Assembly (NCBI RefSeq): GCF_030686945.1
Contig: NW_027122668.1
Location: 60,099-124,098 of the forward strand
DNA length: 64,000 bases
Source: Centruroides vittatus
Lineage: Eukaryota
Reading direction: 5' to 3'
Shown: positions 11,901 through 61,908 of the stretch, in pieces
Position numbering within the stretch: the stretch's first letter is position 1
Layout: each line of letters starts with the position of its first letter
The notes under the pieces: generated by a model
What the model saw: the letters and a program-made list of their open reading frames with translations, nothing else
Databases searched by the model: none
What the model was told of the DNA's origin: nothing
Position numbers and translations under genes: made by a program

Positions 11901-13210
11901 CCCTAGATAACTAAACTTAATTCTCAGTTACATTATAATTACACATTTGTCGAGCAGACCAAGCATTAAAAAACATTAATATCAAAAAAAATTGTTTAAT
12001 AAAAATAGGAACTTGTTACATGGCACAATAGTATGGGTAAGTAGGAACTAAATAAGAACAAAATATTTAGGAAATAAAATTATACACAGTTGCTACTTAT
12101 GTTTACATTATGGGGCTGCAAATTGCATTCTTGCATTTCTTGCAATGGTGTTTTGTCATTCGTCGAGCTTTCGATGGACATAAATAGCATATTTTACGCA
12201 GATTCAACATAGAATGAGTAGGAGCTTCTACACTGGGCACATCACCTAGAATATTTTGAATCATGGTTCTGATATCACGCCTCAAATTCATCGTCTGTAT
12301 CTGCTGTTGTAGCCAGAGCTCCATGAGTTGGTCTCCCATCTTCATAAAGAAATCTTGCCAAGACATCGGATTTATTTTTGTTTCTAATGTTATTAGAGAC
12401 CTAGGTGTAGACAACCACTTAGGTTCATTTTTTCCATATAGAAATCGGGTAGTTGGCTGGAGAACACGTGGATTGCTATTAAGAGTATTTGAGTTTTGAA
12501 TCTTATTTACGCTGATATTCTCACCTTGAGAGTCATCTGATTTTATTTGTGTTCTTTGCCTCTTACTAGGTCGTATGTGATCGTCGTCAGACTCCGAGGA
12601 TCTACTCAACAAATCGGATTCACTGCTAGTGTGCTAGTGTATTTCCTCCTCTAAATTATCCTCAATTTCCCGAAAATGATTCGTCAGATTCCTCCCCATA
12701 CTCGTCTTCCGTTTCTGAATTAATCCATTGTTTTATCTGTTCTTCTTGTCTCCTCAAATCCATCTAAAAATAAAAAACATAGGATATGAGAATAATAAAA
12801 ATATATATATAACAAAAACGAAAAAAAAGACGATCATTGTACCAAAAGTACACATTATATCGCCAGTCTTCAATTATTTCATTAAACATATACTCAAATA
12901 GATATAATTTATCCTGAATATATAAAAAAAACATTCTGTACCTATAAAACAATAAAAATAAATGTAATGTACTGTACATACCTTTGCAACAAAGTTACGT
13001 AGTAACTAAACTTTCATCGAGCAGACAACAGGGATGGCCATAAGTCAATTTCTAATTGACGTGTGAACACAATTGCATTACACACTGCACTGTTTATTCA
13101 AATTATTAAGGTAGAAAAAGAATGACCGGAAAAGGGCACGGCGAAGTTTGTGAACTTCACTTTCGAGCGGAGGTGCGTCGTCGTGTGGACAAATGATTAG
13201 TTATCTAGGG
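11901..13210 (-). mobile_element. Internally deleted piggyBac-like DNA transposon (non-autonomous, 1310 bp) with intact TIRs and TTAA target-site duplication
   Basis: Left end is TTAA|CCCTAGATAACTAAAC, right end is GATTAGTTATCTAGGG|TTAA. These are perfect inverted termini of the CCCTAGA type, flanked by TTAA on both sides (11897-11900 and 13211-13214). The internal ORF has piggyBac N- and C-terminal homology. Confidence 0.8.
12103..12612 (-). CDS. Remnant piggyBac transposase ORF (N-terminal acidic region fused to the C-terminal Cys-rich domain; DDE core deleted)
   Basis: 169 aa. The N-terminus SESDDDH...RFLYGKNEPKWLSTPRS resembles the piggyBac N-terminus (..RGKNKHCWSTSKS..). The C-terminus CYLCPSKARRMTKHHCKKCKNAIC matches the piggyBac CRD (CTYCPSKIRRKANASCKKCKKVIC). 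No catalytic domain lies between them. Confidence 0.7.
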   Translation of the reverse strand: MLSRSSESDDDHIRPSKRQRTQIKSDDSQGENISVNKIQNSNTLNSNPRVLQPTTRFLYGKNEPKWLSTPRSLITLETKINPMSWQDFFMKMGDQLMELWLQQQIQTMNLRRDIRTMIQNILGDVPSVEAPTHSMLNLRKICYLCPSKARRMTKHHCKKCKNAICSPIM

Positions 13211-13729
13211 TTAAGTTTTTCCCCTAAATTTGACAGAACTACATTGGTATCACTGCCATATATATATCAAAACAAAATGCAAATGTATTGTTGCTTTCTA
13301 TACATATTTCTACATATTCCTTTTCCTAATTTAAATATTCTATTATTATTAACAAAAATATAATTTTTGTAATATTGTACTGTGCTGTTATTATTCAGAA
13401 TATACATAAATATATTTTATACATTTCTGCCTGAAAAGGTGTAGGTGTATGCAGCCAGGGCCCCAAGAAAATGGAGAGTTGTCGATACAAAGCCGATTTT
13501 TGGGCCCCCTTTCAGAGATCCTGCTTATACAAATAACGTAATGATATTAGCCCGTTCATTTTCATTTGACCAAGTTTTAACCCAGCATGAACGTTTTCAC
13601 TTCGTATATTCTCACCAGCTATAACAAGATTATCGCCTTTTTTCTTTTATTCATTCCAGAAAAGGAACTGCTTGCCATTTTAATAAGAAAAGTGACTAAA
13701 ATTCCGTAAATACTCTGTAAATTGTCGGT

Positions 13730-13744
13730 AAACTCGCGAAAGTT
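13730..13744. repeat. Target-site duplication (left copy) TAAACTCGCGAAAGT of the LINE insertion
   Basis: Identical 15-mer at 14597-14611. Confidence 0.75.
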
Positions 13745-14596
13745 TTATTAAAGTTTAAATATATACATCACTTAGATGATGATAATCATCTATTTTCATA
13801 CATAGCGTATCTGACAGCATAAGAAACACATATACATCGATTAGGTCTATACATTATTATTCATAACTATTTACATTTACTGTTATAAGGTAAAAGGTCT
13901 GTACATTAGTATCACATTATTAACATTTACATAACCCAAGCCAACAAACTCCATCGTGGAGTGCTAGGGTTAACCCTAAGAAAAGCAGATAGACATGAGA
14001 CAAATTGTCATTCATCATTAAAGATGAACTCCTCACCATTATGTCTCCATATATAATCTTCCGTCCCCTTGTAATATTCCTTCCACTCATTTTCACTTAA
14101 TGTCTCATTATCATACTTAAGTTTTAGCTTCGCTTCCTCTCTTATTTTGTTAATTATTATTCTAGAGCTAATTTTTCTTTTATCGAAAATTGCTAGACAT
14201 CTGGCTTTCCATAAGTGTCTTTTCGTCAGTCCAACCATCCAGTTCATCAGATACGAACTTTGATTTCTTATTTTATAATTAATTTGATACTTAATATTGA
14301 TCCACTCTAATTTTACCCTACAAATACGATTTACCCATGACCATACCGATCTCGCAGGGTTACATTCATAAAAAACATGGATAATTGTCTCATCCCTTCC
14401 ACAAATAGAGCATCGAGCATTACGACGCCTGTGGTATCTACGTAAATAATCTCTCGTCATTACTACATTCAGTAGAATTCTCCACGATGTCTCTCTCCAT
14501 TCAGATGGTAGTATATTAATATTTTTCCATACAGCAATCCAGTTTATATACTTATCCTTCACACTTTCACTAGTGCATTGTTTGAACAAATATTTA
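13745..14596 (-). mobile_element. 5'-truncated non-LTR retrotransposon (LINE) 3' fragment, ORF2 C-terminal zf-RVT-type (C-terminal zinc-binding domain of reverse transcriptases) tail
   Basis: ORF 14008-14589(-) carries WRILLNVVMTRDYLRRYHRRRNARCSICGRDETIIHVFYECNPARSVWSW (zf-RVT CCHC pattern C..C..ET..H.F..C). The element ends in an A-rich tail (..TAATAAAA) on the minus strand. It is flanked by a perfect 15-bp direct repeat. Confidence 0.75.
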
Positions 14597-14611
14597 TAAA
14601 CTCGCGAAAGT
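14597..14611. repeat. Target-site duplication (right copy) TAAACTCGCGAAAGT
   Basis: Identical 15-mer at 13730-13744, bracketing an 852-bp insertion. Confidence 0.75.
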
Positions 14612-15304
14612 AGTCAAAAGCAAACAGAAACACGCGTTTTCGACTTGGAACACCCACGAACAATGTGACCACGAGAATACGCGCGCGACTCAGTCGCGGT
14701 CGCCTGTGCGGCTATAGTGTGACCATGGGACACGTGCGATTAATTTACTCGTGTGTTGAAAAAGTTAAAATATATATAATTTATTTTTTATATCAAACTA
14801 ATTTTTAAATTTTATTTATAATTTTGAAAGTGGGGTTATTTCGTTTTCAATTCTGAATCAATTTCTATTAATTTTTGGCTCCTAATTATGCCCGAAAGAG
14901 GACGCTGTAGTAGATGTAAACACGTGTTTATACACGTGTAAGTTCAAATATTTGATTCTTAGTTAGTATTTAAACGTCTTAAATATTGGCGTAGCCAATT
15001 AAATTGAATAATGCAATGGTGTGGAACGTGAAATTTCTTTAAAAATCCACTTGCAGCCATCCAAAACATAACGAAAATGACGAATTAAAAGTATATAAAT
15101 GCAACAAACTCTAGAAAATTGCAATATATCCTGTTGATAATTATCTCTGCAAAGCTTTTCTTATAATTTTATATAGTAAGATAACTTATCAAATTAATTA
15201 TCATTGAAAATTTGACCTTGATAGTTTGACTTAAAATTCAACAGTAATCTAATCTTGTTAACTGTCTTAAATTCCAGCTAGGAGTTTTAATAAAAATAAC
15301 CAAA

Positions 15305-32748: not shown

Positions 32749-32922
32749 CTATATGACACTATAATATATTTGACGATTTTCAAAAAATTCTTGAAACTTT
32801 ATCAAGTTATTATTACATTCGGTAGGATCGAACAGAGGTAATTCTCCTCCGTAATCGGCTGGAAGATGTCGAGGATCGATGTATTTATGTAAAGATTCCA
32901 TACCAGAACTATGGAGATGGAC
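32749..32922 (-). CDS. CRAL-TRIO protein terminal exon 5 (includes stop)
   Basis: VHLHSSGMESLHKYIDPRHLPADYGGELPLFDPTECNNNLIKFQEFFENRQIYYSVI* contains the CRAL-TRIO C-terminal motif (ih.hg...L...i....LP.eyGG). The 5-exon model gives 273 aa. Confidence 0.8.
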   Translation of the reverse strand, partial: VHLHSSGMESLHKYIDPRHLPADYGGELPLFDPTECNNNLIKFQEFFENRQIYYSVI

Positions 32923-32993
32923 CTAAACATTTTAAAAATTTATATATATTACTGAATGGTTAATTGTATATATTTGGACAACACTATCCTTAC

Positions 32994-33104
32994 CCTTTTC
33001 TTTATCTTGTATGGAATAAATGGGTAGAATGCCATATAAAATGCATGTACAAATTTTCCAATATTAACTACATGAATTCCTTTAAATTTAACTGGGAGAG
33101 ATTG
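32994..33104 (-). CDS. CRAL-TRIO protein exon 4
   Basis: QSLPVKFKGIHVVNIGKFVHAFYMAFYPFIPYKIKKR matches the CRAL-TRIO block YPerlkkihfvNaP.if..lw.l.kPFl..k...K. GTAAGG donor. Confidence 0.8.
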
Positions 33105-33180
33105 CTGAAATGAAATATGTATACGCATTAATTTATAATATACTTTTTATTATAAATATATTAAATGAAATTTTACTTAC

Positions 33181-33374
33181 AAATAATAAAGAAATTATGG
33201 CATGAACTGTACTTGGTGTTAAGTGCAGAAGATGCCTCCACGATAATGTTTTAGCATCCAAAATCAATACAAAACCATTAACTTGAAGTAAATGTCCTGT
33301 TAATCCTGCATCTAAGAACAGCAGGAGACCTTTTATAATAGTTTTGAAAGACATTTTTGAAGGATCCCAATAAG
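33181..33374 (-). CDS. CRAL-TRIO protein exon 3 (lipid-binding domain)
   Basis: (P)YWDPSKMSFKTIIKGLLLFLDAGLTGHLLQVNGFVLILDAKTLSWRHLLHLTPSTVHAIISLLF matches the CRAL-TRIO core (WDPsk..qvnG.vvivDlkGls..hl). Phase joins exon 2 to give GIGRCPYWDP. Confidence 0.8.
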
Positions 33375-35238
33375 CTAAGGGAAACAAAACTATATATAAA
33401 CATTTCTCGGTTTAATTATGAGTAATTATTAACAGATATAATAAAATTTCTCAATGAGTAACACTTGATTATCAGTTCCATGTTAACAAATTATAGCTAT
33501 TTTATCAACTCAATTATCTAATATGATCTTTACATCAATTTTGATTATCAAAATTGATGTAAAGTATTGATAATTTCAATTAGAATCTTCGTGTGGATTT
33601 CATCTTTTGCAGTTGGAAGAAGACCTCTACAATAGAAGAAACTATTGCTTTTAATGGAGCAATAAATTTAATAACATTTAAGCTATTTTTAACTCAAAGA
33701 ATGTTACTATTATTGCAGAAATTGGCAAAAAATCAAACAATTACTGGCTCAGTTTTTTTTGTGTAAATTCTATGTAAGGTTTTTTTTTACGTAAAAATTT
33801 TCAAAGTCTATATAAATAAATAAGATACTTAATATTACAATGTTTCAATTTATATTTTAATTTCTGAATTGTTCTAATATAATGTAGTGACATCGTGATT
33901 ACTATAACGACAATCTTACAATGTGTTATAATATGGCTAATCATCTGCAAAATATGGAAAGTAAATAGTTTATTTTCATTAAGATGGGTATCTTGATGTT
34001 TGAATCTAATGATAAAAAATTAGTGAGGAACGCTTGGTTAGAAAATTCTCTTACGTATTTGTGATAAAACGGTAATGAAAATAAGTGATAATGAATATTT
34101 AGTTATCTTCAATATCAATGAGATATTATGATTAAACAAACAAGATTAGCTTCTTAGGACAGAAGTCACTAAACGCACATCTCATAGATTCCAAAGTAAA
34201 TATCGTATGTAGTCTATTTTTTGTTTTTATTAATTTTATTGGCTGTCATTTGAAGATATATATTGTGGCCAGTGCCGTAACTAGCCATTCCTGTGCCCTG
34301 TGCAAGAATTTGCAATTAGGCCCCTTAATTAATTAGATTTTGGAAAATAATAAAACAAAATACATGCATTTTGGGCCCCTTCCAAGTGGGCCCTGTGTGG
34401 ATGCACCTGTTGCACCTGCCTAGTTATAGCACTGATTGTGGCTATTTTGAAAGATAAAAAATAGCATTAACAAAATGTACAATGAAATTCTAATTTTATA
34501 CAAAATTGAAAAGCTGTAAATAGCAATACGATAGATTTCAGTGAACATAATTATGTAACAATGCTACTATAACATCAACATATGATCAAGTGCCAATGGA
34601 ACCCAATGCTCAAATTAATGTTAAGACTTACAGCTCATTAAATACGAAAAAATATTCTAAAGAGACTCCTAACGTGGTTAATGAAATGTCACTAAAGTAA
34701 TGATATATTAAAAAAATGTTAAGATCTACATACAACTGATTAAAAAATATTGTATTTGTTTATGAAGTGTATATACTTTGATCAGTGTCTAAATATTTAG
34801 CAATTTATATCTAAATCTTGAAACTTATCTTGTATCTATGATGATTGCCTAGTCTAGGCAAATCTTATGAAAAATTACAAATTAGATACAAGTAGTTATG
34901 AAAAATCAGACATTACAAGTGTCAATAGAGGGAAGTCATTTTTTAAAGTGAGAATGGAATCAATGCCCCTTTGGATACTAAGTTGAATTCTTTACAACTA
35001 TATTTTAATATATAATTATTGATATATTATCATATCAATCATTTTATCAGGACTTTAAAATAAAAACAAAATGTACAGTACGTATTTAAAATAAAATATG
35101 TCAGTTTAAAGGTAACAATTATATAAATCTGAACAATCCTCCAATACAAATAATCTACAGATGTGCGTAATGCTACTTCTTAAAAAGTTTTGTACGAATT
35201 ACTATTATAATTTTAATTGTAATTTTTACTATACTTAC

Positions 35239-35478
35239 GACATCTACCAATTCCCACAATTTGCCCTTTGTCATCAGTATGAGTAAAATATCCATGTACT
35301 TTCATATCAAGGTATTCCTTCATAGCTAATGGACTATAATCTCCAAATACATCTTGATTCTTTTGTCTCGACGATAAATAATTTTTTAATAGTTTCAATG
35401 CTCTTTCTCTTTCGAACTTTCTAGCTCTGAGGAAACTCAGGAGGAACATGTCGTCTAACGGACAGTTTATGTTTTGCT
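35239..35478 (-). CDS. CRAL-TRIO protein exon 2 (CRAL_TRIO_N region)
   Basis: EQNINCPLDDMFLLSFLRARKFERERALKLLKNYLSSRQKNQDVF...HTDDKGQIVGIGRC. This is the textbook CRAL_TRIO_N motif FLLRFLRARKFdverA. CTTGCAG acceptor, GTAAGT donor. Confidence 0.8.
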
Positions 35479-35626
35479 CTGCAAGATGTATGGAATTAAT
35501 TAATTGAAACTACTTAACTTACATGTACAGTACATATCCGAATTAATTATATGCTGCCATTCTGCATTTCACGTAATCAAAAATCTTTTCGTGGGTAAAT
35601 TAATTGAACATTTATAAATCTCTTAC

Positions 35627-35729
35627 CTATAACGATATTTCTGAAGGTTTCCAGTTCATTTTCGTTCCAAGAAGTATAATCTTTTCTTTCTTTTTTACTA
35701 AAATCTTGAAAAAGCTCATCTACATCCAT
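35627..35729 (-). CDS. CRAL-TRIO domain protein (alpha-tocopherol transfer protein-like / clavesin-like) exon 1 with putative start
   Basis: MDVDELFQDFSKKERKDYTSWNENELETFRNIVI. An in-frame upstream TAA makes this the first ATG in frame. GTAAGAG donor. Confidence 0.55.
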
Positions 35730-42257: not shown

Positions 42258-43240
42258 CTACATACCTGATTTACATTCCCGGAAAACGTAACTAGGATCG
42301 TAACAATCGAAGTTATATACCACGTCACTCAATACTTTTACATCTAGTCCATGTACCATTTTTAACAATTTTTGTATCGTTTTAATTAATTTGTTATAAA
42401 CTTCGTTTTTATGTTTATCTCGAAGTGGTTCAAACGTTTTTTCAATGTCATCTAATTTTAAAAACAAATTAAGAAGAATGAGTTAATGTTACCTTAGGTT
42501 CCAAGATGGCGGTTCGTCTATGATTCCAACAAGGAAACAGTGGGAGGGAACGCACGTTTTCCTAAACCTAACCTATTCTAATAAATTACCATAATTATTA
42601 GCAACCAAATTATTAGAATAGGTTAGGTTTAGGAAAACGTGCATCCCCACTGTTTCCTTGCTGGAATCAGAGACAAGCCGCCATCTTGGAACCTAAGGTA
42701 ACATTAACCGAAGAAGGTATAACACAATAAATTACAGCGGCAGTTAATCTGTAAAAGAAGGAATTTCAACTTAAAGTTTCGTACGTATTTTGAAGATAAT
42801 GCAAAACTTGATTCTCTCTATTAATTCTTCATCCGCTACTACTTTAAATTGGTTGAACCAAAAAAACATTTCTACAAATTCTCGAACGTGGTAATCTTGG
42901 CTGGCTGAAGGAAAGAAGGTGAAGTACTTAAATTCCGCTTTGAATGCATCGAACTTCAGGGCAAAATCCAGTAGGACAAGTTTAAAAAAGTGATCATCCA
43001 AGTGATCATCCAACTGTTCCCACTTGAAAATATTAAATATATGAATATTACAAAGATTTATAACGATCACTTAATTTTCAAACGAAATTCATACCATAGT
43101 TTCATGTTCCATGTTAGATAGTTGCTCTCTCAAGAGTGATTCCATATTGTCGATCATAATTAAAGTAAGGATAATTTTCATCTTATTTCTGTCGCTTAAA
43201 TTCAGGAAATGACTATTTTCGTATAATTCCTACGAGAAAA
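42258..43240 (-). pseudogene. Diverged RT-like remnant, copy 1
   Basis: SHFLNLSDRNKMKIILTLIMIDNMESLLREQL, then FFKLVLLDFALKFDAFKAEFKYFTFFP (motif A-like), then a distal block LDDIEKTFEPLRDKHKNEVYNKLIKTIQ...FDCYDPSYVF. A stop lies immediately between the blocks. Homologous block-by-block to copies 0, 2 and 3. Confidence 0.4.
42482..42709. mobile_element. Second copy of the GTTAATGTTACC MITE family
   Basis: Same TIRs (GTTAATGTTACCTTAGGTTCCAAGATGGCGG...). Flanked by the imperfect duplication GAAGAAT/GAAGAAG. A third truncated copy sits at ~46147-46200. Confidence 0.65.
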
Positions 43241-44595
43241 ATTTTATGTTAACATTAAATTTGCGTGTCTGAACGGTTGATGCTAGGCCTTCGTATAGCT
43301 ATAAATTCAAATTTTATTAAGAAAACAACAATTAAATGCCACGTTTAACCATTTTAAAAATTAAATAACAGTCATAAGAAAAAGTTTAAAAAAAAAAAGT
43401 ATCTAGTAAGGGCTCTTGCTCTACTTTCTGGCACTGGAACGGGTTTACAAAATAACTTTTATATTATTAATTATTATAAAAAGGCAAAAAGTGCTTAATT
43501 TTAATAGTAGAGACGAGTTTTTAAAACTATTGTAAATGTCAATAACAATTAAAATTTTCATTAAGTTCAAACCCATTTGATGAACCACTCTACCTCTTCA
43601 CTCCTTGAATTGCGTACGCCACAATACGCATCAACCCTCTTATATACAAGCTACCACGCCAGATTTTGTTTCCTACGTTCAATTGTCGAGATGTACAAAA
43701 AAATACACGGAAAAAATTTTACATAATTACACATAATTTTACATAATTACTTTCTCGTGTTATTAAAGCCGGGAAAGTAAAGTTAATGGGCATGCGTGTG
43801 TAATCACAAATGCTCACATGCTTAGCACTCGACACAGATGCTCGGGTATGCAGTTCCATAGACAGGCCCTCGAGAATACACCTGTAGAAGAAACGGGACG
43901 ATGTGACTTACGAATATTGTGAGAAAGCAAAATATCTTCCATTAAACAGAAGAATTTTTTGAAAAGACTGTAATTATTTATTTATTTTACTAAATCAGCG
44001 GCGAATCTAGCTGAACCCAAAAGGGGCTAACTCAAAACTTTACAATATTTGAATATTTAATAAGAATGTTTCATTAATAAGTGTACGATGAGTGTATTTG
44101 CCGTCACATTTGATTCCTTCAAATGAAACAACTCAGACGTATAATTCAAGTATGTGATTTATTGTACACATGACAATTTACAGCCACAATACACTCGACA
44201 CTGAACAACTGCCTCTTTCGTTTAGAAGTACAGTACCCTTCCTTTGTCCTGTACAGTAGCGTCCTACTCTCTCTCAAAATTTTCAGTGTTTCCACTACAG
44301 TTTGTTTCATTTCAAGGAATCGAATAAATGTTTATAAAAATGACATTTAGATGTTTAAATAAATAAATTTTAACGGGTTTTTATGTCAATGTGAAGGAGT
44401 TAAGCCCCTGTAGCCTTGTGGATCCGCTCTTCTAGCCTTTCGCCCATAACCCGAGATAACTCGGGCGTGAGCTTTAAGAAGCCCTCAAAAATGACTTATA
44501 ACTTTTCCAAAAATGTATGGATCAGCATATATACATCGTTATCTATGATCTATGCAAATTTCATGAATTATTTTGGCCGCGAAAATATTTTATGG

Positions 44596-44760
44596 CGATT
44601 TTTTAATTCGTCTAACTTCACTCAGACTCTATTAAATCATAACACAAAAAACACCTTGATGCTGAGAACGTTTAAATTTAATCAAAAACAAACGTTTTCG
44701 GCCCACTCCATGAGCCATCGTCAGGCTAACTACATTCGAATATAATTTCGAACAAGCAAT
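44596..44760. repeat. Single-arm relative of the 52716-53052 foldback family
   Basis: Shared strings include CACTCAGACTCT, CTGAGAACGTTTAAATTTAATCAAAAACAAACGTTTTC and TTCGAATAT(A)ATTTCGAACAA. Confidence 0.55.
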
Positions 44761-45187
44761 TTCAAATTGAAATAAACTACAAAAAAAGAACTCACGCGCT
44801 ACGCTGGATAACGTAAACCAAAACTAATATAAACAACATAGAAAATAATAAAATAAAATATGTTAATGTTACATGTGTACATTGTGAAAATCTATAGTCT
44901 ATAGATTTTCACAATGATTTTAATTAAACTAGAATTAAATTTAAACTAGATTTTTTAATTAGATAATTAATCGCACTATTGTTTTTTAAATTCCTACTAT
45001 TAGTTCACACTCTCCCTATATATATATATATCTTGTTCAAATTTTCAATCGTTAATAAAATACTTTTTATTCATCCACTTAGGTTCAAATACATTTTTTT
45101 AAACTTGTAGTGGATGACACTTGATGTTAATACAGTTTTTTCAAATATTAATTCATTAATTAAATTTTATTATTGGTTAATATTACC

Positions 45188-45500: not shown

Positions 45501-48165
45501 CTTTAAAAAAAATTTTTTATATTACTTGTTTTATGGGAGTTTTATCAAATTAATTAAATCGTTCCAAACTTCCATTTGACCGATTTGACTTTGGTAAAAG
45601 TTTTTAAAACTCTATTGGATATTATTATGACATCAGCAGGTTTTTTTGTTTTTTATTCAGTAAAACTTTTTTCCCATACCTTTTTTTCGGTCCCCTCGTG
45701 TTTTAATAGCAAAAATATCGAAAATATTGTGTTATATTTGAACAGATGCGGTAAAGTTAGCTCCTCTCCGGTTTATACCAATATTCCCCTGAAGCATGAG
45801 AACTACCCGGGAAAGCTGACACCAGCTGTTCTCAAGGACAACCGGTTGGTAAACAATGTAGACTGCACGTGTGAAATTTCACGCCTTATTAAATGAAATA
45901 ATAATAATCCGTGCAGCTATATTTTTCAAATAAAATCATTCATTTTAAATTATTTTTAATTTTTTATATAGTTTTTCTGTAAAAACACTTTTTGGGGGTG
46001 TTTATTTCGCGGCAATTATTTCCCGGCAAATTTTTTTACTAATCAGATTCGCATTTGAATGGGAATAATTATTTAATATAAAAAATAAATTACTTGGGGG
46101 TTTTCCAAGCGCCATTCCATGAGGAACAAAGTAACGAAGGAGTTAATGGTTAATGTTACCTATGGTTCCAAGATAGCGGCTCGTCTCTGATTCCAGCAAA
46201 TAACAATTTAAACAATTTTCTGACTAATATAATTAAAATTATTTAAACTTACAGTGAGGGCTTTTCTTTTTAACATGTTGTTCCCAATAGCCATTTTATG
46301 CTGCAAAGCGTATATTATTTCCATTTTCTTAGGTACAACTAATTTATATTTTTTAGGCAATACGACGAAATGCTGAATTTCACTTTTGCGTATTTTAAAT
46401 GAGTAATACAACACTAACAAACGAGCTGAAAAATAAAATGATTCATTTAAATTATTTTCAAAATTTATTTCTCTAAATTCTTTGTAAAATATATTTATCG
46501 CGATAGCTTAAAAAATACGTATTGAAAATTTGGGATTTTCATTTCACAATCACATAACTGCTAACTTGATCTTATCAATGTCGTCTATTCAGAAGCTCGA
46601 TCGAGACCAAAACAATATCCATCACGCAAAACGTGAAAAAATGCAGCAGCTCTGAAAGAGGCGATTGGAACCTATCACAGCTGTAGACCATGCCCACAGG
46701 ATTAAAATGCCAAATGGTGATCTATATGCAACCCTTCGCGAGATACAGCCCTCTGAAAGCAGCCTATCTGAACTTTTAAATACTGGGGTAAAATTTAATC
46801 AAGTAACAACAGCCGAAACTGCACTTCTGGATGTATAGTTCTTACGTCACTATTCATAAAGATGAGGTGTGAATTCTCGGGTATTCATTGGTGATAGTTC
46901 CACTTATCGATAATTTTTTAAACTAATGTCCCTCTTGTCAAAGAACTCCCATGCTGACAATACTTACCATGCAAACTGCATTTCACTCCAATAATTCTCC
47001 CATCTTTTTAAAATTTTCAGATTTTTTATGGTCTTTTTGCCCACTATGTATTATACACGGACTGTTTACTACACTGCTATATCTCACGAAAGACCATCGG
47101 TTAGTTTGCCTTTTTTTAAATCCTATTGGCATGGTATACAGCTCTGGTAAGGACGTATCGCCTCATTCGAGAGCTGCAATTTTACTCATACATCAAAAAA
47201 CATGAAAGCAAATCAAACTTTTGACAAATATACAGGATTAATTAAGATGCACAACTTACACGTAAATAAGAGTTAATACATAATTTTTAATTTTTAATTA
47301 ATATATTTAAATACAGCCAACTTACGAATGTTAATCTTTCCATTATGAAAACAATACATTCTTTTAAATGCGTAACAATACGTTTCACGAACTTTAGCGG
47401 GTTGATTTAAGATGGCAGATTCCATTTCATTTCTAAAATTGTCAAAAACATGTTCATTTATATTTCTCTTGTTTTCTAATTTTGGTATGGAGTTATAAAG
47501 CTTTAAAATTGCTTCCACTAATTGCGTAGTATTATTTTTCATTATCTTAAATACATAAAAGTGCAGAAATATTTTATAAAAATCCTGTAAAATAAAATTT
47601 TTAATTAAGAATTATGGTTTTATTTTAAATATATTAACAATATTACTCACTTTAATATAACTTCAAAGTTAAAAACACTTAAAATGCACTCTTAGTTAAA
47701 GGTCACCTTCTCCCTTCGCACAAAGATTTTATAACTTTTCCATCCCTCTGGAATTATTCGACATTAATTAAATATATTTTTTAAAATATATTTTAATTTC
47801 GTTTATTTAAATAAATATTTTAAATAAATTTTACTGACATTTGTAGTAAAATTGACGGTAATTCAAATACAAATAATTTTAAGTAGTTAACGATATACTT
47901 TGGTCTTTCCAAAACCGTATTAATATAAAACCGTATCAAAATAAAAGGTTTATTATATAATATTAATAAATAATTAATAAGAATAAGTGTATTTATTAAT
48001 ATCTGCTTTATAAAACTGAATTTTGGCATTTAAATATTGAAGCTAAGTAATTGAATGGATGGAATAAGGCAACGCAATACTTGGACGATTTGCTTCCCAG
48101 GAGGACTTTTATGGAAACTGTTCCCTAATTACATGTTACATATGTGAAGAAAACCCGAATGATCC

Positions 48166-49976: not shown

Positions 49977-50013
49977 CAATGGGAAACAGATTAACCGCTC
50001 GGCCACCTCGTCG
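49977..50013 (-). pseudogene. Truncated tRNA-Ser(GCT) pseudo-copy (5' acceptor/D-arm joined to part of the anticodon stem)
   Basis: The reverse complement GACGAGGTGGCCGAGCGGTTAA|tctgtttc|CCATTGG matches tRNA-Ser positions 1-22, then shows an internal deletion/replacement. It marks the outer end of the left inverted-repeat arm. Confidence 0.6.
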
Positions 50014-50385
50014 TATTCTCACTTTTCGATACATGCATTTTCACCAATCTCTCCACAACGGTTGGCACCAATTAGAATATTGGCTGCAGTAGCATGACTA
50101 ATGATCGGGAGCGATGACACTTACCATAATTAATAACCCGAGAGACTATGCCAAAGCGTCAACAATTCGTCTCGGTAAACACTGAAGGATTTATTTCAAA
50201 TTTCGCAATATGCCGACTTTTTTTGTGTATTTCTTCTTACATCTGATTTGCCGAATGCCAACGTTCCGAAACGATGTAATGCTGAACGCTCAAAATGCGA
50301 AACCTAACCAGCAGTAACATTACTAAATAAACGAATTTGGCATAAACAAAGTACTTCACGTACGTTTGTAGATTTTTCGTTCGCT

Positions 50386-50468
50386 CCGTCGATAGCTCAG
50401 GTGGTAGAGCGGTGGACTGTAGGGGAGTAGTTATCCATATGTCGGTGGTTCAAATCCGCCTCGACGGA
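50386..50468 (+). tRNA. tRNA-Tyr (anticodon GTA) with ~10-nt intron
   Basis: CCGTCGATAGCTCAGGTGGTAGAGCGGTGGACTGTAG[gggagtagtt]ATCCATATGTCGGTGGTTCAAATCCGCCTCGACGGA. Acceptor stem CCGTCGA/TCGACGG, GTA anticodon in a 7-nt loop, intron immediately 3' of position 37, T-arm GGTGG-TTCAAAT-CCGCC. Near-identical to vertebrate and insect tRNA-Tyr. Confidence 0.9.
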
Positions 50469-50473
50469 GGAAC

Positions 50474-50479
50474 TTTTTT
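50474..50479 (+). terminator. Pol III terminator T-run downstream of tRNA-Tyr
   Basis: T6 run 5 nt after the tRNA 3' end. Confidence 0.6.
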
Positions 50480-51534
50480 ACCCTTGTCTCTGTGATAGAA
50501 GGCAAACATTATACGAATTACTGTAATTCTGAATTGCACAATTCAATGTGTTTCGAAGAGAAACAAATGCAAAATACGCGCCCTGGGGCCTTAGTCTCGA
50601 GTTTTTCGTGTTTCAACTCCCAACGTGTCACGTGGTACCATCTCGCACACGGACGTCAAATCGGTAATCTCGAGTTATAACTCCTGTCTCACCATGTGAG
50701 TTGCTACTCACGTTGAGTCGAGCATGTGAGATCGCTACACGAAAGTGAAAATGAATTTGCTGTTCTGATCGCAATCGAAGCATTAGAAAAAGCTGAAAGA
50801 CGTTATATAAGAAGGCAAAGAATTTTTCGACCAGTTATTTAATATAATTTATATTATTATTATTATTTTTAATAATACAGTAATATAAATTATTAAGAGT
50901 CTCCTCTGCATCCATTTAATGTTCACTGATCAAAACTTTATAGCAGTTTGTATAATTTTGAGTATTATAATCTTTTTATATTAATATCAACTGAACAGGG
51001 ACTATTCCGATAGTCCGAAATGCATTTTGATTATTTCATAATAATTTTTCATTTAATCGAGTTTTAATCGAGTTTACATCCCTTTTGTTTTATTAAATGT
51101 ATAGTACTACATTGATACCTGAATATTTGTGCTTATTATCACTGGTGTGATAAGTCCTTATTATCTACCCCACATTAGTAGGTATTTAATTAATTTAATT
51201 AAACCAAGGGCTAAAACAATTCTTTGTAATAATTGAGCCGTTTACAGGACAAATCGACTAACTCCATTTGTAAATCCTTAATATAATCGTCATTATTTTA
51301 AAATTTTTCACGTAACTAATTTTATATATCGTTATATTAAAGCATAGCTTTAATATAACGATATATAAAAATATATTCTGCAATGTTTATTTAAATTGAA
51401 AGTTTAAAGGGAATTTTAAAAAATAATTTATATTATCAATTTTTATACTTTTTGTTTTGTGGAGTTAATCGATTTGGCAAGTGAGCCGCTCAATTCACGT
51501 CGATTTGTTTACCACTTGTTACTGTTAAGTTGAT

Positions 51535-52245
51535 TGGTTGAATCATTATACCGTACGTTTCTATATTCAACGGTTGACTCAACAGTGAGAAGAAAACGTT
51601 TCTAAATGGACCGTCGAGTTCTCCGTTGAGACTAGTGACGTCAGCGCTGTTTTACCGTTGAGCTCAACGGTCTCAACGACCTGAAAGACCGTTGAGTATT
51701 CAACGAACTAACATGGCAGCTTCCACGAAAAAGTAAATTTCGCTTATAGAAACTATTCATTCGCTCTTGCTGTGGATGCTGTAATAGCGGACAGATTAAT
51801 GAACGATCTGTATATAATAAAACATGTGATTGCATGATTGTGTTGGATAATTTGGTCAATATTGAAGTATTAAGATTTTTTTTTCATTTGTCCAAAATTG
51901 ATTACGACCGATATTTGGCTCTCTTTAAGTCTTCCTAATGATATAAATATTCAAGAAATTAATTAAAATTATTAAAGACCAAGTATACTAGAAAATGATA
52001 CAGATAAGGGTTCATTTGAATAAAAGAATTTATTCGAATAGTGGATAAGCGAGTTACTTTAATTATTTAGCAAAACAGGCACAATCGTTGCCTTCTCTTT
52101 AATTAAGTCGGCCATCATGAAAAGTGCCCTTTCAACGGAAACGTTTTTTTTTCTACAAAACGTGACCTCAGATCGTTCAACGGAGGGACTCAACGGAAAA
52201 TTCACTGTTGAGTCAACCGTTGAATATAGAAACGTAAGGATAGTC
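51535..52245. mobile_element. MITE-like element with subterminal CCGTTGAG/CAACGG repeats in inverted termini
   Basis: TACGTTTCTATATTCAACGGTTGACTCAACAGTGA at 51536-51570 is inverted at 52196-52245. There are multiple CCGTTGAG copies inside both ends, and a TGACGTCA motif at ~51627. Confidence 0.5.
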
Positions 52246-52715
52246 GCAAACCCAGATGCATTGTAAATAATCCCATCGTGCTTAACGACACGCGTAAACA
52301 ACTGAATATCACCTACTTCCGCTCGCCTTTCAAGTTCGCTCGAAGGGTCTAACTCGAGACTACCGATTATGTGAGTAACACAAATGAGTTCAATGACGTC
52401 AGTTCGAGTACAACACGAAAAACTCGAGACTAAGGGCCCTGCATGAAATGCCGTATAATAGGGGAAGGTGGTGCAAGATGGGGCCATGGATAAGACGGGG
52501 ACGTCTGTTTATTTGTGGTTAACGTGCTTTCATCTAGCTGTTATTTGAGGAACTAAATGTCAACCTCAAAAGGGATCACGGGACGAGAGAACGTCCGAAC
52601 GGCTCTCTTTGTTCGGAAGTAAGACAGTTTTCCATGTTTCATCAGTACTTTATCTAATTTTACGCCCGCTACAAAGTTTCTACAAAATAAGTATTATTGT
52701 GAACTTTTACATTAC

Positions 52716-53052
52716 CATTCTCCTATTCCCACTCAGACTCTTTTAAATTGTAAAACAAACACACCTTAACGCTGAGAACTTTAAATTTAATCATAAAAAC
52801 AAACGTTTTCAATGGGACATCTTCAGGTTAACAACATTCGAATATCAATTTCGAACAACCAGTTCAAATTAAAATAAATTACAATAGAATTCACGCGCGA
52901 TACTGAACTATTGAAATTTATTTTAATTTGAACTGGTTGTTCGAAATTGATATTCGAATGTTGTTAACCTGAAGATGTCCCATTGAAAACGTTTGTTTTT
53001 TTTGATTAAATTTAAAGTTCTCAGCGTTAAGGTGTGTTTATTTTACTATTTT
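52716..53052. repeat. Near-perfect foldback (hairpin) element, ~165-bp arms, loop centred at ~52895
   Basis: CACTCAGACTCTTTTAAATTGTAAAACAAACACACCTTAACGCTGAGAAC...TCGAACAACCAGTTCAAATT is mirrored exactly on the other side. A single-arm relative lies at 44596-44760. Confidence 0.75.
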
Positions 53053-53405
53053 ACATTACCTTTTAAAGATATTGTGGTATTCGAAGTAATCTTTAAGACT
53101 GAAATTGTTTAGTTTTGAAATAAAGTTGACCCGTGTTTGCAGTCAGTATGAAAAGTGCACGTTGGGCAAGATGGTGGAAGCAAGATGGTAGGGGCAAGAA
53201 GACCCCATCTTGACCAAGGTTGGCCACGAATTCTGCTGCTGGCTAGAGGCACTGCAATATAGTGCAGTGAACTAGTTTTAAATTTGTTGTCTGATAATTC
53301 TATATCATCTTTTCGAAAATATAAAATAATAATTTTAAAAATGATCTTTTTATAGCAAATGAAATATTCCACTCTTAAATCATATCTAACTGTAATAAAT
53401 TTATA

Positions 53406-53856
53406 CAGTATACCGTATTTCACGGACTATAAGACGCACCCTAATTTTTAAGCAATTTTTTTAAAAAATAACATTTTTACCATTTTTATTATTAGATTGC
53501 AAAGCCAGACTAAAGAAAATTTTCTTAGTTTATAAAACCGAACTGACCTTTAAAATTCCTGAAAATCGTCATCTGAACTTTCTTCTTTTTCCTCTTCGTC
53601 ATCATCGTTGTCCTCTTCATATATAAGACGGTCTTCACTGCCATCGAGAGCGTTACTTATGCCGCACTTCTTGAAAAATTTAACAATAATGTCTTCTCTC
53701 ACTCTAGACCACGACTGTTTTATCCACTGACACACTTGTTTGATTTTAAATCAAACACTGGACATTTTTATATTAATTTCCAGTATAAGACGCACCTGAA
53801 TTTTGGAGGCAATTTTTCGAAGAAGTGCTTCTCATAGTCCGTAAAATACGGTATAC
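53406..53856 (-). mobile_element. pogo/Tigger-derived MITE (451 bp) with TA target-site duplication, retaining the transposase C-terminal coding tail
   Basis: Termini are TA|CAGTATACCGTATTTCACGGACTATAAGACGCACC...GGTGCGTCTTATACTGG...ATAGTCCGTAAAATACGGTATACTG|TA. The internal ORF 53550-53735(-) reads CQWIKQSWSRVREDIIVKFFKKCGISNALDGSED plus an acidic tail. That is the conserved pogo/Tigger transposase C-terminus. Confidence 0.65.
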
Positions 53857-54565
53857 TGTATTACTTTATTATTTATGTTTTTACGTTTTATTTTATTTAT
53901 GAAAACATTTTTTAAATTTAAATACGATCTTAACAAGAAATAAAATGTCAGATAACAATTGAAATAAAAATTTTTTCCACGAAAAAAATGTCGTCTGCTT
54001 ACAAAATAGCGAAACTGAGCATGCGCGAAGTGACAGTATCGTCTGGTAAAGTAAATACGAGTAAGTTCAAACTTTTATATTTATTTATTCGGAAAATAAT
54101 AATAAATGTAGCCGTTGTGATAAATGGGCACACTGTTCTTGTACCAATATTGAAGAAAACAACATTTTACCGTTTTAATTTGTCCTTTTTGTATATAAAA
54201 ATAATATCCCCATCTTACCCTTTGAGTGGGGCAAGATGGTGCATTTTCATATAATTTAAAAAAATTAAATTTTCTTGTTTTTAAAAACGTTTTTCAAAAA
54301 ATAAATTTTGTATTATATATTACCAAATGTTGTAGTTGCTGAGAATAAAAAAAAAATATTGTTTTCATTAAAGTGGCTGCCATCTTATGACTTTTCAAAC
54401 CTTAACGTCCTCATCCTGTCCTACCTTCCCCTATACGTAGTATTTCGTCTGCAACAGGAAAAAAGTATTCAGGAGGCGTATTTCGCATTTGTGTCTCTTC
54501 GAAACACCTTAAATTGTGCAATTCAGAATTACAGGAATTCGTATAATGTTTGCCTTCTATCACAG

Positions 54566-54571
54566 AGACAA
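54566..54571 (-). terminator. Pol III terminator (T-run on minus strand) after the second tRNA-Tyr
   Basis: A6 run on plus is a T6 run immediately 3' of the minus-strand tRNA. Confidence 0.55.
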
Positions 54572-54575
54572 GGGT

Positions 54576-54658
54576 AAAAAAGTCCTCCGTCGAGGCGGAT
54601 TTGAACCACCGACTTATGGATAACTACTCCACTACAGTCCACCGCTCTACCAGCTGAG
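54576..54658 (-). tRNA. tRNA-Tyr (GTA) second copy, intron-containing, convergent with the first
   Basis: Reverse complement reads CCGTCGATAGCTCAGCTGGTAGAGCGGTGGACTGTAG[tggagtagtt]ATCCATAAGTCGGTGGTTCAAATCCGCCTCGACGGA. It differs from the + copy by 3 substitutions. Confidence 0.9.
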
Positions 54659-55040
54659 CTATCGACGGAACGAACGAAAATTCTACAAACGTACGTGAAG
54701 TACTTTGTTTCTGCCAAACTCGTTTATTCAGTAATGTTGCTGCTGGTTAGGTTTCGCATTTTGAGCGTTCAGCATTACACCGTTCCGGGACGTTGGCATT
54801 CGGCAAATCAGATGTAAGAAGAAATACACAAAAAAGTCGGCATATTGCGAAATTTGAAATAAATCCTTCAGTGTTTACCGAGACGAATTGTTGACGCTTT
54901 GGCATAGTCTCTCGGGTTATTAATTATGGTAAGTATCATCGCTCCCGATCATTCGTCATGCTACTGCAGCCAATATTTTAATTGGTGCCAACCGTTGTGG
55001 AGAGATTGGTGAAAATGCTTGTATCGAAAAATGCGATTAC

Positions 55041-55122
55041 GACGAGGTGGCCGAGCGGTTAAGGCGATGGACTGCTAATCCATTGGGTTATACCCGCGTG
55101 GGTTCGAATCCCACCCTCGTCG
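55041..55122 (+). tRNA. tRNA-Ser (anticodon GCT) with long variable arm
   Basis: GACGAGGTGGCCGAGCGGTTAAGGCGATGGACTGCTAATCCATTGGGTTATACCCGCGTGGGTTCGAATCCCACCCTCGTCG. Canonical class-II tRNA-Ser(AGY), followed by a T7 run. Confidence 0.9.
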
Positions 55123-55129
55123 TTTTTTT
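55123..55129 (+). terminator. Pol III terminator T7 after tRNA-Ser
   Basis: TTTTTTT directly abuts the tRNA 3' end. Confidence 0.6.
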
Positions 55130-58378: not shown

Positions 58379-60480
58379 ATTTTTTTTTTTTTTAACTTTA
58401 AATGCTAGATTAAGAAAATAGTAGTTGTTAACATAAGGGTAATGAAATAGTTTGTTATAATAAAACTTGTTATTCTTTTTCAGCACATCCTCAGTATCTT
58501 GAACAACGGAATACTCTATGACTCTATATATTACTTGATTAATTAATTTGCTGATTGTTATTTCTGAGGTAATCGATGACTAGGTCAATAGAAAAACTAT
58601 ATCCATTCAAAATTAGGGACAGTTGCGTTATCCAATTTCGATTTATATTTATTCTCTTTGATCTGTCATCTAAGGCAATTAATTACAAGTCTTATAGATA
58701 AATCTTCTGTGTTTATGATCTTTTGTAGCCATTTAATATATCCTTTAACCAAGACTGTGTTTAGCTTAAATCTTTTGAATTCTAAACGAGGTACACTTTC
58801 TGGCGTTTTATATTCTAATTGGTACAATTTGCGAATAAAAATATTTTAGATTTTTTCTAAATCGTTAAATTTGTTTCGAGTCCAAATTGGAGCAGCATAG
58901 CACAACGCGTATAACACTACATAATTAAATAGTAGAAAGTGGGTCCTATTATTTATCATCTTCGCTTTGCAAAATAAGGTTATTAAATTATTCATCAGAT
59001 TTATAGACTTTGCAACAATGTATCTGTAGTATTTATCAAAGGATAAATTATACATCCATGTAATTCCCAAAAATTTATTTTCGTTGAGGATTTTTATTTT
59101 TTCATTATTGATGTAGAAAGACATAGCTTTTTTTCGACAATCTTGTCCCATTTCTGAAGATCATAACTTCGGATTTACTAAAGTTTATTTTGACTTTTAA
59201 ATTATTTAAGTTTAATATCCACGTTTCAGTGATGCCGATGACTATAAAATATTTTGTACTTGTGGTATGCAATTTACTTCTAAGTCCCTGACAATTCCAA
59301 AAGCTAATTAAAATTTCGTTAGGTTTGATCGTAGCGGCCGATGCACTATTCTCAATATCGCTGTAATTGACCAACTTTGAATCATTGTCAATCTTATTTA
59401 TATCGTTATAATCTATGCAAACAGTTTCCTTGATATTAGATAGTATATTTGTTGTTGTAACTATGTTTTTTGTGTTAGACTGATAGTTTGATCTAAAAAT
59501 AGATTAATTGGTATGATTTCATTGGTGTACATGTCAAGAGTATATTTGAGATTATTTTTAATGAAATGATCTTCTCTAGTTAATATTCTTGTGTCCGCCG
59601 AAAATTCAGCTTTGATTTTATTAATGAGGTGTCTTCTTCTAATTCTGGATCTATAGCATAAGTCTGACTTCATAAAAATTTTATTAGTCTCGTTTTCCAA
59701 GTTGGATTTTTTCAGCCAAAATTTTTTTTAAATGAGATTTCTGTCTCCGACCGATGACGTAGTTATTTTTATTACTTGGTCTTTTAAACCACTTTTTCCT
59801 AATTGAATTAAATTGTCAATTTCTATATTCTTAAAGAATTCATTGTGTCAGAATTGGATATTATTACTATCATTATAAATTATTATTACTATCATTATAA
59901 ATTCTGTCCAATTCAAATTCGAACGTACCTTTTAAGTTTAGGCCCAACTTTGTTTTGTCTTCACATATTTGGATTTTATGTTCAATGGTTTTCACATCTT
60001 CTTTGGTTCTGATATTATTTTGTTCTATACGGCTGATTTCGTATTTAATTGACCCAATTTCCTGGTTTAACAGCTCAAATTTCCTTTGAATTAAGTCGTA
60101 AATTGACTTGAGCGAGTACTTCGGATCATTGTCGCTTGTTTGATCAGACTGATCCGATGATTCGAAGTAATCAATAATCTTGGATTTTTTCGTTGTCTCT
60201 CTATGATCTTTTATCTTTTCTTCAATTATATTTTCTTCACTTATTAAATCCATTAATTGACTCGTATTTTCTGAGCTTTGAGCAATTACCTTTTTCAGTC
60301 GTCCACGCCCCTTCTTTTGCATAACTGATTGGCTTGTACTTGGCGGAGAATGTTGCAACGGGCCCGGATTTGTTTCCACACCGGAAATTATTAACAATAA
60401 TAGTATCAAATTCAATGAAAACGAATTCATCATGAGACTGTTAAACGATTGGTATCGTATTTTAAAACAAACAATTTGTC
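58379..60480 (-). mobile_element. Internally deleted non-LTR retrotransposon (ORF1 with N-terminal 2A-like peptide; APE start fused to RT C-terminal region; poly(A) tail)
   Basis: ORF1 at 59873-60433. ORF 59105-59374 has an APE-like N-terminus (ISFWNCQGLRSKL...ITETW) that runs directly into the RT distal region (KINFSKSEVMIFRNG). ORF 58846-59151 carries the RT thumb region (KFLGITW..D...VRP-like). The T14 run on plus at 58379-58392 is a poly(A) tail on minus. 5' and 3' boundaries are approximate. Confidence 0.55.
59873..60433 (-). CDS. LINE ORF1-like protein with N-terminal hydrophobic tract plus a 2A-like GVETNPGP motif, followed by a coiled-coil region
   Basis: MMNSFSLNLILLLLIISGVETNPGP (motif nt 60359-60382). 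The downstream region is Lys/Glu-rich with heptad-like segments (LLNQEIGSIKYEISRIEQNN), as in LINE ORF1 proteins. Confidence 0.55.
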   Translation of the reverse strand: MMNSFSLNLILLLLIISGVETNPGPLQHSPPSTSQSVMQKKGRGRLKKVIAQSSENTSQLMDLISEENIIEEKIKDHRETTKKSKIIDYFESSDQSDQTSDNDPKYSLKSIYDLIQRKFELLNQEIGSIKYEISRIEQNNIRTKEDVKTIEHKIQICEDKTKLGLNLKGTFEFELDRIYNDSNNNL

Positions 60481-61149
60481 ATAGCACTTGTTTAACACTC
60501 TGAACCAAAAAGTCACCAGCACCGACGATGGTTTACAGCGCCCCGGATGACTCGGTCACTATCCATACCAACCATGCGAAAATTTTAAATTCCATTGATT
60601 GATGTATATGCACACAAATTTTATTATTACAAAAATTATAGCGATTTCTCTTTACCTAGACCTAGTTACTTTCCACCCATCCTTATATATATATAAACTT
60701 ATATAGAGAAAAGATATATTGCTACTAATGTATTCTATAATAGAGAGTAACTTATAAAAACCTCTACAATTATTTTATTTTCAAGATAAATTGTTACATA
60801 AAAATGATTTTCATTCATTATAACTATAAGTATTTAAAAATTACTAACCAGTAATGACTTTTCCAACAAATCTATTGACTTGAAAATTCTTCTAGAGATT
60901 AATAGTTTTCCCAAATTTTCTCTGGAATCTTCAGATAAAAATTTATTATGGTTTTTATAAATAAATGAAAAAACATATTAAAATAATTAATAAATTAAAA
61001 GTTTTACTTAAAATGGCTGATAGTATTTTAATTAAAATTATGTATACACTGTATTTTTTAATTGGCCTATCAGTGAACGTTTTAACTGTTTTACATAATT
61101 CTGCAGAGACGTAGTCTCAATAAAAGGGTGTCTGTGCGAACAAACACTG

Positions 61150-61908
61150 TTCTGGGTGATTAGACATGGCGGCAAGAAAGATCACTTAGTTTTTTCAAAT
61201 TTTTACCTAATAAGCAGTCGTAGAAAATATCTTGTGGGCAATAACAGACGAATTTATCTGCTAAATCATTCAATCCCGCATCATCCAAATCTCGCAGAAG
61301 TTCTAAGAGTTCATCGGCGTATAATAGAAACAATGATTTAAAAGCTTCTATAAACCTACGAATTAATATATATTCCTCTTCTGATTTCTTTCCTGAAAGA
61401 TCATCAGATAAATATTAAGATTCGATCATAAAATTTTTGTATTAATTAATTTTTGAATCTTTCTTACCCAATTTCGAAGACTTGCAATATTTTAGTACTG
61501 AAATGTAACTGTTAATTCTGAGTTTCTTGAATTTGTTACAACATGGTATTAAATATTTAATTATTTTAAAGAATTTTACGATGTCATCGTCTCCTTTCTG
61601 GTAGGGGAATAAGGTAAAATGTTCGAATTTGAACTTATTGTCAGCATATTTGAATGCGAAGTCGAGTAATACGAATTTGAAAAACTTCACTTCATCCAGA
61701 GTTCTCTAAAAATTATTTAACGGGTTAATTTATCAATTGTTTTTAAATTTTACGAGTAAACTTTATACTCACCAAAAATTCGGAATTTATATATTCTGTA
61801 GAGAATTCATGAACAAAAGATTCAACGTTTTCTATCATACTCATTGTGATAAAACATTTCATTTTATTCTTGTCATTCAGGCGCAAAAAATAGGAGCTTT
61901 CGGACATT
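61150..61908 (-). pseudogene. Diverged RT-like remnant, copy 3 (best preserved)
   Basis: SYFLRLNDKNKMKCFITMSMIENVESFVHEF, then KFVLLDFAFKYADNKFKFEHFTLFPYQKG...KYLIPCCNKFKKLRINSYIS (motif A through the FRVRVNGS-like region), then EEYILIRRFIEAFKSLFLLYADELL (YADD-like). Segments are separated by short GT..AG-bounded gaps of 67 and ~65 bp. Confidence 0.4.

Follow-up and report, generated by a model that had tools for sequence, protein, structure and literature searches.

How did the scorpion Centruroides vittatus come to carry two transfer RNA (tRNA) genes for tyrosine that face each other across a few kilobases of mostly transposon-derived DNA? The question is raised by positions 49977-55122 of a 64,000-nt stretch of its genome (assembly GCF_030686945.1, contig NW_027122668.1, positions 60,099 to 124,098 of the forward strand), here called the window, which is AT-rich nuclear DNA with ~32% G+C and whose numbering is used throughout. 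A segment of about 0.6 kb that contains a complete tRNA-Tyr gene and reaches into a tRNA-Ser gene is present there twice, in opposite orientations, on the two sides of a spacer. We consider that the locus probably arose as a local inverted segmental duplication, produced by fold-back or template switching, which added one tRNA-Tyr gene. This explanation is favoured over that of an old palindrome homogenised by gene conversion, the latter being close behind.

The duplication itself is readily seen. The left arm (49991-50585, 595 nt) aligns with the reverse complement of the right arm (54470-55062, 593 nt) over 595 columns, with 567 matches, 26 mismatches and two 1-nt indels, i.e., 95.3% identity, and the arm-to-arm BLAST E-value is 0.0. 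An earlier sequence-only reading of this DNA had described two ~600-bp reverse-complement arms with scattered mismatches; the inverted pair stands as described, with its left start corrected from 49977 to 49991. The substitutions comprise 13 transitions and 13 transversions (Jukes-Cantor distance 0.045) and the differences show an even spread, with 99 nt as the longest run of identity (P = 0.15). No further copy of the arm was found by BLAST within the 64-kb window, and exact-pattern scans with one motif per collection, one viral and one metagenomic, returned no match. A chimeric six-frame query made from the right arm likewise found no match in a 5.8-billion-protein set, which is a weak negative, the sensitivity of the approach being unproven.

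The tRNA genes were called with the Rfam covariance model (gathering score 29) and with ARAGORN, run with and without its intron option. Rfam and the intron-aware ARAGORN run agreed on two intron-bearing tRNA-Tyr(GUA) genes and one complete tRNA-Ser(GCU) gene, the same set that had been recognised by eye. The left Tyr copy lies at 50386-50468(+) (Rfam 56.1 bits), exactly where the sequence-only reading had put it, and the right copy at 54586-54668(-) (58.8 bits), 10 nt away from the interval 54576-54658 given there. Both were named Tyr(gta) by ARAGORN with the intron option and both point inward. They were miscalled as Leu and Thr without the option, because the packaged ARAGORN run allows no introns. 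Each gene has a 10-nt intron at the canonical site, GGGAGTAGTT at 50423-50432 in the left copy and TGGAGTAGTT at 54622-54631 in the right copy, placed after TGTAG and thus one nucleotide 3' of the GTA anticodon (position 37/38). The canonical position of the tRNA-Tyr intron and a eukaryotic length range of 6-133 nt have been documented (PMC4090602). The internal promoter read from the sequence consists of an A box TAGCTCAG(C/G)TGG and a B box GGTTCAAATCC, and terminators of six T residues follow at 50474-50479 on the left (5-6 nt past the gene) and at 54576-54581 on the right (4-5 nt past the gene).

The two Tyr copies are close to but not fully identical. The intron sequences had been read correctly before, together with a single difference between the copies; three differences were found, namely D-loop position 16 (G/C at 50401/54653), the first intron base and variable-loop position 45 (T/A at 50440/54614). 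All three (3/3) are confined to loops or the intron, the acceptor, D, anticodon and T stems are intact in both copies, and the spliced molecules have the same predicted pairing and the same predicted energy. Selective constraint on the Tyr copies was not detectable when their 3 differences per 83 nt were set against 23 per 510 nt in the remaining arm. Because the cloverleaf, the promoter boxes, the intron and the terminator are all kept, the differences fall in loops or the intron and the predicted folds are equal, both copies are probably transcribed and spliced, which would yield two slightly different isodecoders.

The Ser gene shows which of the two arms is probably the original. The complete copy (55041-55122(+), Rfam 66.5 bits, ARAGORN Ser(gct)) is a class II tRNA, having a GCT anticodon and a long variable arm whose insert is visible in the Rfam alignment; it is followed by a terminator of seven T residues at 55123-55129 and stands divergent from the right Tyr gene across a gap of 372 bp. 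The boundary of the right arm falls within this intact gene, which continues unbroken beyond the arm. At the outer end of the left arm, only nucleotides 1-22 of the Ser gene are present (49991-50012(-), 22/22 matching), ending at the TTAA of the D-loop. This remnant does not qualify as a class II tRNA-Ser and is a dead fragment. Since the whole Ser gene adjoins the right copy alone and the left one has just nt 1-22, the right arm is probably the parental copy and the left arm the derived one.

The sequence-only reading had seen the left Ser as a gene whose middle is deleted, with nt 1-22 joined to CCATTGG. That claim does not hold up: this 7-mer is the sole string common to the left flank and to Ser beyond nt 22, and as much is shared by 4.2% of 40-mers drawn at random from the window (chance P ~0.04). 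An internal deletion is thus unproven, and truncation after nt 22 is the safe description. Two further candidate explanations of this end were rejected. An insertion of piggyBac type at the TTAA with which the left arm ends does not fit a flank that is not a piggyBac end and a right Ser gene that is uninterrupted, and an integrase-type tRNA attachment site does not fit a partial Ser repeat that is inverted and not direct.

The inner ends of the arms bear on how the copy was made. The spacer (50586-54469, 3884 bp) holds no internal copy of the arm. Its left part is a 1.85-kb non-coding element with terminal inverted repeats (TIRs), here TE1 (50585-52439), which follows the left arm without a gap at its inner end. 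The tips of TE1, GGGSCCTTAGTCTCGAGTTTTTCGTGTT, match at 27 of 28 nt and both sites are unique in the window; its 95-nt TIRs are 72% identical (50585-50677 versus 52350-52439), and no Pfam domain was found in it. Beyond TE1, a pair of short inverted repeats lies at the edges of the remaining spacer. The left member of these inner stubs (52445-52483) begins 5 nt after the end of TE1, and the right member (54409-54446) stops 23 nt short of the right arm's inner end. Aligned as 52445-52483 versus 54446-54409, they span 41 columns with 30 of 36 ungapped positions identical and 2 indels, which gives 73-83% identity. The alignment score is 17 versus 6.6 +/- 1.3, and none of 2689 random 70-nt windows reached 17; the score is significant for its position and unremarkable against the whole region. 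The core motif ATAGGGGAAGGTRG occurs exactly at the two stub sites only, in opposite orientation, with a third site at 22188 carrying 2 mismatches. The stubs are significantly more diverged than the arms (6/36 substitutions and 2 indels versus 26/593 and 2).

The 2-kb segment bounded by these stubs (52442-54451) is probably itself an old TIR element, which we call TE2. We regard it as a transposon because it has imperfect terminal inverted repeats, a cluster of the motif GCAAGATGG and nested miniature inverted-repeat transposable elements (MITEs). All four occurrences of GCAAGATGG in the window (52473, 53166, 53180 and 54231) fall in the centre of the spacer, and these copies may be subterminal repeats of the old transposon. 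Degenerate copies of the motif in opposite orientation were also seen near 53205, 54207, 54378 and 54420.

Taken together, the arms flank a single-copy spacer with inverted homology at both edges, and this supports assignment of the locus to the fold-back class of inverted duplications. The parental unit would have been the head-to-head pair of the right arm, tRNA-Ser(GCU)(+) and tRNA-Tyr(GUA)(-), 372 bp apart. During replication or break repair, the nascent strand would have made a U-turn at the diverged short inverted repeats 52445-52483 and 54409-54446, leaving the older, transposon-derived segment of ~2 kb between them as the single-copy loop that became the spacer. The flanking Tyr-Ser DNA would then have been copied backwards for about 600 nt. 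The copied stretch of 595 bp would run from ~115 bp downstream of Tyr through that gene and the DNA between the two genes as far as nt 22 of Ser, where the strand may have left its template just past the A box of the tRNA-Ser gene before its end was joined to unrelated DNA at 49990/49991. TE1 would have been inserted later at the boundary of left arm and spacer. The copy, in reverse orientation, now lies 3.9 kb to the left. The net effect would be one extra tRNA-Tyr gene and a 22-nt Ser stub.

Published observations make these steps plausible. In human fold-back inverted duplications, the spacer measures between 766 bp and 70 kb (median 3.4 kb) and has at its edge inverted homology, which in three cases consists of diverged pairs of long or short interspersed nuclear elements (LINE or SINE) (PMC3907307). 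In yeast, widely spaced and diverged inverted repeats support fold-back, which is suppressed only by heterology beyond 25% (PMC10164571). Fork stalling at tRNA genes is documented in work cited in PMC11790251. The sequence-only reading had proposed a palindromic tRNA locus arising by hairpin-mediated duplication; the class of a DNA-level inverted duplication is borne out, and the origin by that route is unproven.

Several points weigh against the fold-back explanation. Inverted homology is present at both spacer edges only once TE1 is treated as a later insertion, and the model needs the coincidence that TE1 landed within ~15 nt of the point where the left arm borders on the inner repeat. The ~15 nt of AATACTTTTTCCTGT beside the right arm are without a left counterpart. 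No microhomology was found at the outer junction 49990/49991. No second copy of 52442-54451 was found, and the identity of TE2 rests on the three features named above. Finally, we infer the mechanism from one locus in one genome.

The first of these points is also what gives the strongest rival its appeal. A possible, though less probable, history, which fits about equally well, is that of an old palindrome with arms of at least ~655 nt that predates the split of C. vittatus and Centruroides sculpturatus and was kept alike by gene conversion. After TE1 had landed in the left arm, ~60 nt away from its inner end, sequence exchange between the arms would have gone on in the outer 595 nt, and the inner stub cut off by TE1 would have drifted to 73-83% identity. 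This account explains without coincidence why identity drops from 95% to ~80% exactly at TE1, which counts against fold-back, and inverted repeats and multi-copy tRNA genes are well known to undergo such conversion between arms. As an interspecies yardstick for dating the duplication, 23 kb of DNA around the BMS1 gene of C. sculpturatus (218,890-222,255 on the reverse strand of scaffold KZ494992.1) was aligned to the window; on that scaffold the site orthologous to the duplication would be expected near 172-177 kb, about 42 kb away from the aligned piece. The BMS1 open reading frame (ORF) and its flanks are 94% identical between the species and the non-coding blocks 79-88%, so that the divergence of the arms is 3-4 times below that of interspecies non-coding DNA. 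The duplication is then younger than the split, provided that no gene conversion took place; otherwise the arms were homogenised. The stubs have a substitution divergence of 17%, with a wide confidence interval, which is close to the interspecies non-coding value of 12-21%. The whole pattern of 95.3% in the arms, 73-83% in the inner stub and 79-88% between species would fit gene conversion if the duplication were old. Against conversion, TE1 looks young, with tips matching at 27/28 and the TIRs of a MITE nested in it at 37/38, which is unlikely given the ~20% divergence of the stubs that its insertion would have isolated. Moreover, the even spread of the arm differences, with no long identical tract (see the 99-nt run above), shows no sign of recent partial conversion.

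The order of events could also be reversed, with a near-spacerless palindrome that formed first around a very short loop (a few to ~30 nt) and whose fragile centre then received the 2-kb element and TE1, followed by the MITEs. We think this unlikely. If TE1 and 52442-54451 are removed, the arms do come to stand ~20-30 nt apart, and the pogo-derived MITE within the palindromic repeat 53277-53964 (described below) gives a second TIR element at the centre of a palindrome in the same spacer. However, 52442-54451 has no clear target-site duplication around it, only the self-complementary TGCA being shared, and the arms look younger than the central element, which has terminal repeats at 73-83%, three levels of nesting and an internal repeat at 69%. 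The sequence-only reading had named as its alternative a composite transposon carrying RNA polymerase III genes, i.e., a 5.1-kb composite or foldback-type element whose 0.6-kb TIRs each hold a tRNA-Tyr. Long terminal inverted repeats around a transposon-rich interior recall such an element, but the idea has become very improbable. No direct repeat that could be a target-site duplication was found at 49991/55062 on reading the flanks (...GGGAAACAGA before the left arm and GGCGATGGAC... after the right arm), the outer ends of both arms are tRNA sequence and not transposon ends, and an insertion ending inside the intact tRNA-Ser would need exact rebuilding of that gene. The only transposase trace is a 61-aa remnant that belongs to a nested MITE, and neither the window nor the single-motif viral and metagenome scans held another copy. 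An assembly artefact, in the form of a false inverted duplication from chimeric PacBio continuous long reads (CLR) or a misjoined haplotype, is just as hard to credit. PacBio CLR reads and Illumina reads, the latter for correction, went into the C. vittatus assembly, whose paper is silent on tRNA genes (PMC11304958), and reads with a missed adapter can yield palindromes. Such artefacts, however, give near-identical spacerless arms, usually at contig ends, while here the arms are distinguished by 28 positions, the 3.9-kb spacer is asymmetric in that TE1 lies at only one of its sides, and one arm ends within a gene that is complete at the other arm. Fold-back stays our preferred explanation.

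The remaining content of the spacer consists largely of nested elements, recognisable transposon sequence making up ~75% of its length. Within TE1 lies a MITE-like element of 689 bp (51551-52239) with 38-nt TIRs that are identical at 37 of 38 positions, or 97% (51551-51588 versus 52202-52239); the coordinates given before for these nested inverted repeats and for those of TE1 were close to the measured ones. In the 2-kb centre, a foldback MITE of 307 bp (52745-53051) has arms of ~143 nt that are 93-95% complementary around a 20-nt loop, and so replaces what had been taken for a perfect foldback of 337 bp. A half-copy of this element as it extends over 52684-53051 was noticed at 44582-44806 with 75-78% identity; the shared stretch begins 60 nt upstream of the hairpin, the unit of the family being larger than the hairpin. 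Further right, an AT-rich palindromic repeat (53277-53964) with a 163-nt inverted match at 69% identity has weak copies at 60901-60998, 3516-3601 and 46013-46089 and in C. sculpturatus DNA. It hosts at its centre a pogo-derived MITE of 453 bp (53406-53858) whose TIRs, CAGTATACCGTATTT... (CAGTATACCG...), match at 24 of 25 positions and are found only here in the window; the element is flanked by a TA target duplication (TA/TA). Inside this MITE lies the 61-aa C-terminal remnant of a pogo/Tc5-type transposase (53550-53735(-)), the sole transposase trace in the spacer, whose ORFs otherwise gave no Pfam domain. The remnant has 803 relatives in a representative library, and the pogo origin that the sequence-only reading had assigned to the MITE is confirmed because full-length relatives (P0163 and P0247) carry DDE_1 and HTH_Tnp_Tc5 domains.

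Elsewhere in the window, the ribosome-biogenesis GTPase BMS1 is encoded at 4937-8299 by an uninterrupted ORF of 1120 aa, recognised by Pfam and 100% identical to the NCBI C. vittatus protein. It is a single uninterrupted ORF in both Centruroides species, whereas in the tick Ixodes scapularis the gene has multiple exons over 44.5 kb, which suggests that the scorpion lineage lost the introns or had the gene replaced by a retrocopy. Two stretches, 9154-13561 and ~13743-14732, have no counterpart in the orthologous region of C. sculpturatus; they hold an ORF at 12106-12633 and a zf-RVT ORF at 14008-14589 and are probably transposon insertions of the C. vittatus lineage. A compact five-exon gene of the CRAL-TRIO (Sec14-like) type with canonical GT/AG sites was reconstructed at 32749-35729(-). 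Its 273-aa product was absent as an exact sequence from a 15-billion-protein collection, and the gene may be unannotated. A chimeric query of the CRAL-TRIO exons and flanking ORFs gave no match at E <= 1e-10, a weak negative of unproven sensitivity, and look-ups of exact products found no match for C. vittatus BMS1 or for three ORFs in or near the locus. The ORFs at 42774-43070(-) and 61445-61705(-) share the pattern ...VLLDFA(L/F)K...F(K/E)(Y/H)FT(F/L)FP... and probably belong to one dispersed repeat family; the former had no Pfam match. At 59873-60433(-), a 186-aa ORF starts with MMNSFSLNLILLLLIISGVETNPGP, which by eye resembles a 2A-type "NPGP" ribosome-skipping motif, and the run of short ORFs around it at 58.8-59.7 kb gave no Pfam match. 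ARAGORN also called a 92-nt tRNA-Arg(tcg) at 2328-2419(-), which had no Rfam tRNA match even at E <= 1 and is probably a false positive.

The locus shows the birth of one scorpion tRNA-Tyr copy and is a natural case in which a small inverted duplication can be resolved cleanly, with one breakpoint inside a tRNA gene and the other beside transposon inverted repeats. For the annotation of Centruroides genomes it provides a pair of Tyr isodecoders, a single Ser gene and a pseudo-fragment of Ser, and it could serve as a single data point in a genome-wide survey of tRNA family expansion. We speculate, with little confidence, that it is the footprint of a general route of tRNA-gene gain in transposon-rich arthropod genomes. 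Replication would make a U-turn at the terminal repeats, by then diverged, of an old transposon and copy neighbouring RNA polymerase III genes backwards, up to the point at which the fork runs into the transcription complex of the next tRNA gene. If such a route were recurrent, many inverted tRNA pairs with transposon repeats inside and a truncated tRNA outside would be expected. Taken alone, the locus matters little, as it poses no new question and represents no new kind of system.

Among known systems, the human fold-back inverted duplications (Hermetz et al. 2014, PMC3907307) resemble it in having inverted copies around a single-copy spacer of a few kilobases and short inverted homology at the spacer edges, sometimes provided by diverged interspersed repeats. 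The second junction in such systems has little or no homology, as here. Template switching in yeast, known as U-turn or as inverted-repeat amplification that depends on an origin (ODIRA), is a related system (PMC4689423, PMC10766183, PMC11790251). Unlike these, the scorpion duplication is tiny (0.6 kb copied) and interstitial, and neither a terminal deletion nor a dicentric chromosome nor a triplication accompanies it; being a relic of evolution in one genome, it was not observed as a de novo event, and its spacer has since gained at least one further transposon. The tRNA clusters of Arabidopsis (PMC10701932) likewise arose by local DNA duplication including flanks, with slightly diverged isodecoders and truncated pieces at the edges, but they are tandem, direct, many-unit arrays, whereas a single inverted pair is present here. 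Composite and foldback transposons share the long terminal inverted repeats around a variable middle, and differ in that our locus has neither a target-site duplication nor a transposase, has termini in a host gene and has no other copies in the window. As is generally known, palindromes that arm-to-arm gene conversion maintains, such as those of sex chromosomes, also have arms far more similar than the neighbouring sequence and a non-duplicated spacer; their arms, however, measure tens of kb to Mb at >99.9% identity versus 0.6 kb at 95% here, where conversion is a candidate process. Local inverted or tandem tRNA duplicates with pile-ups of transposons are commonplace in animal genomes, and this locus is a new instance of them.

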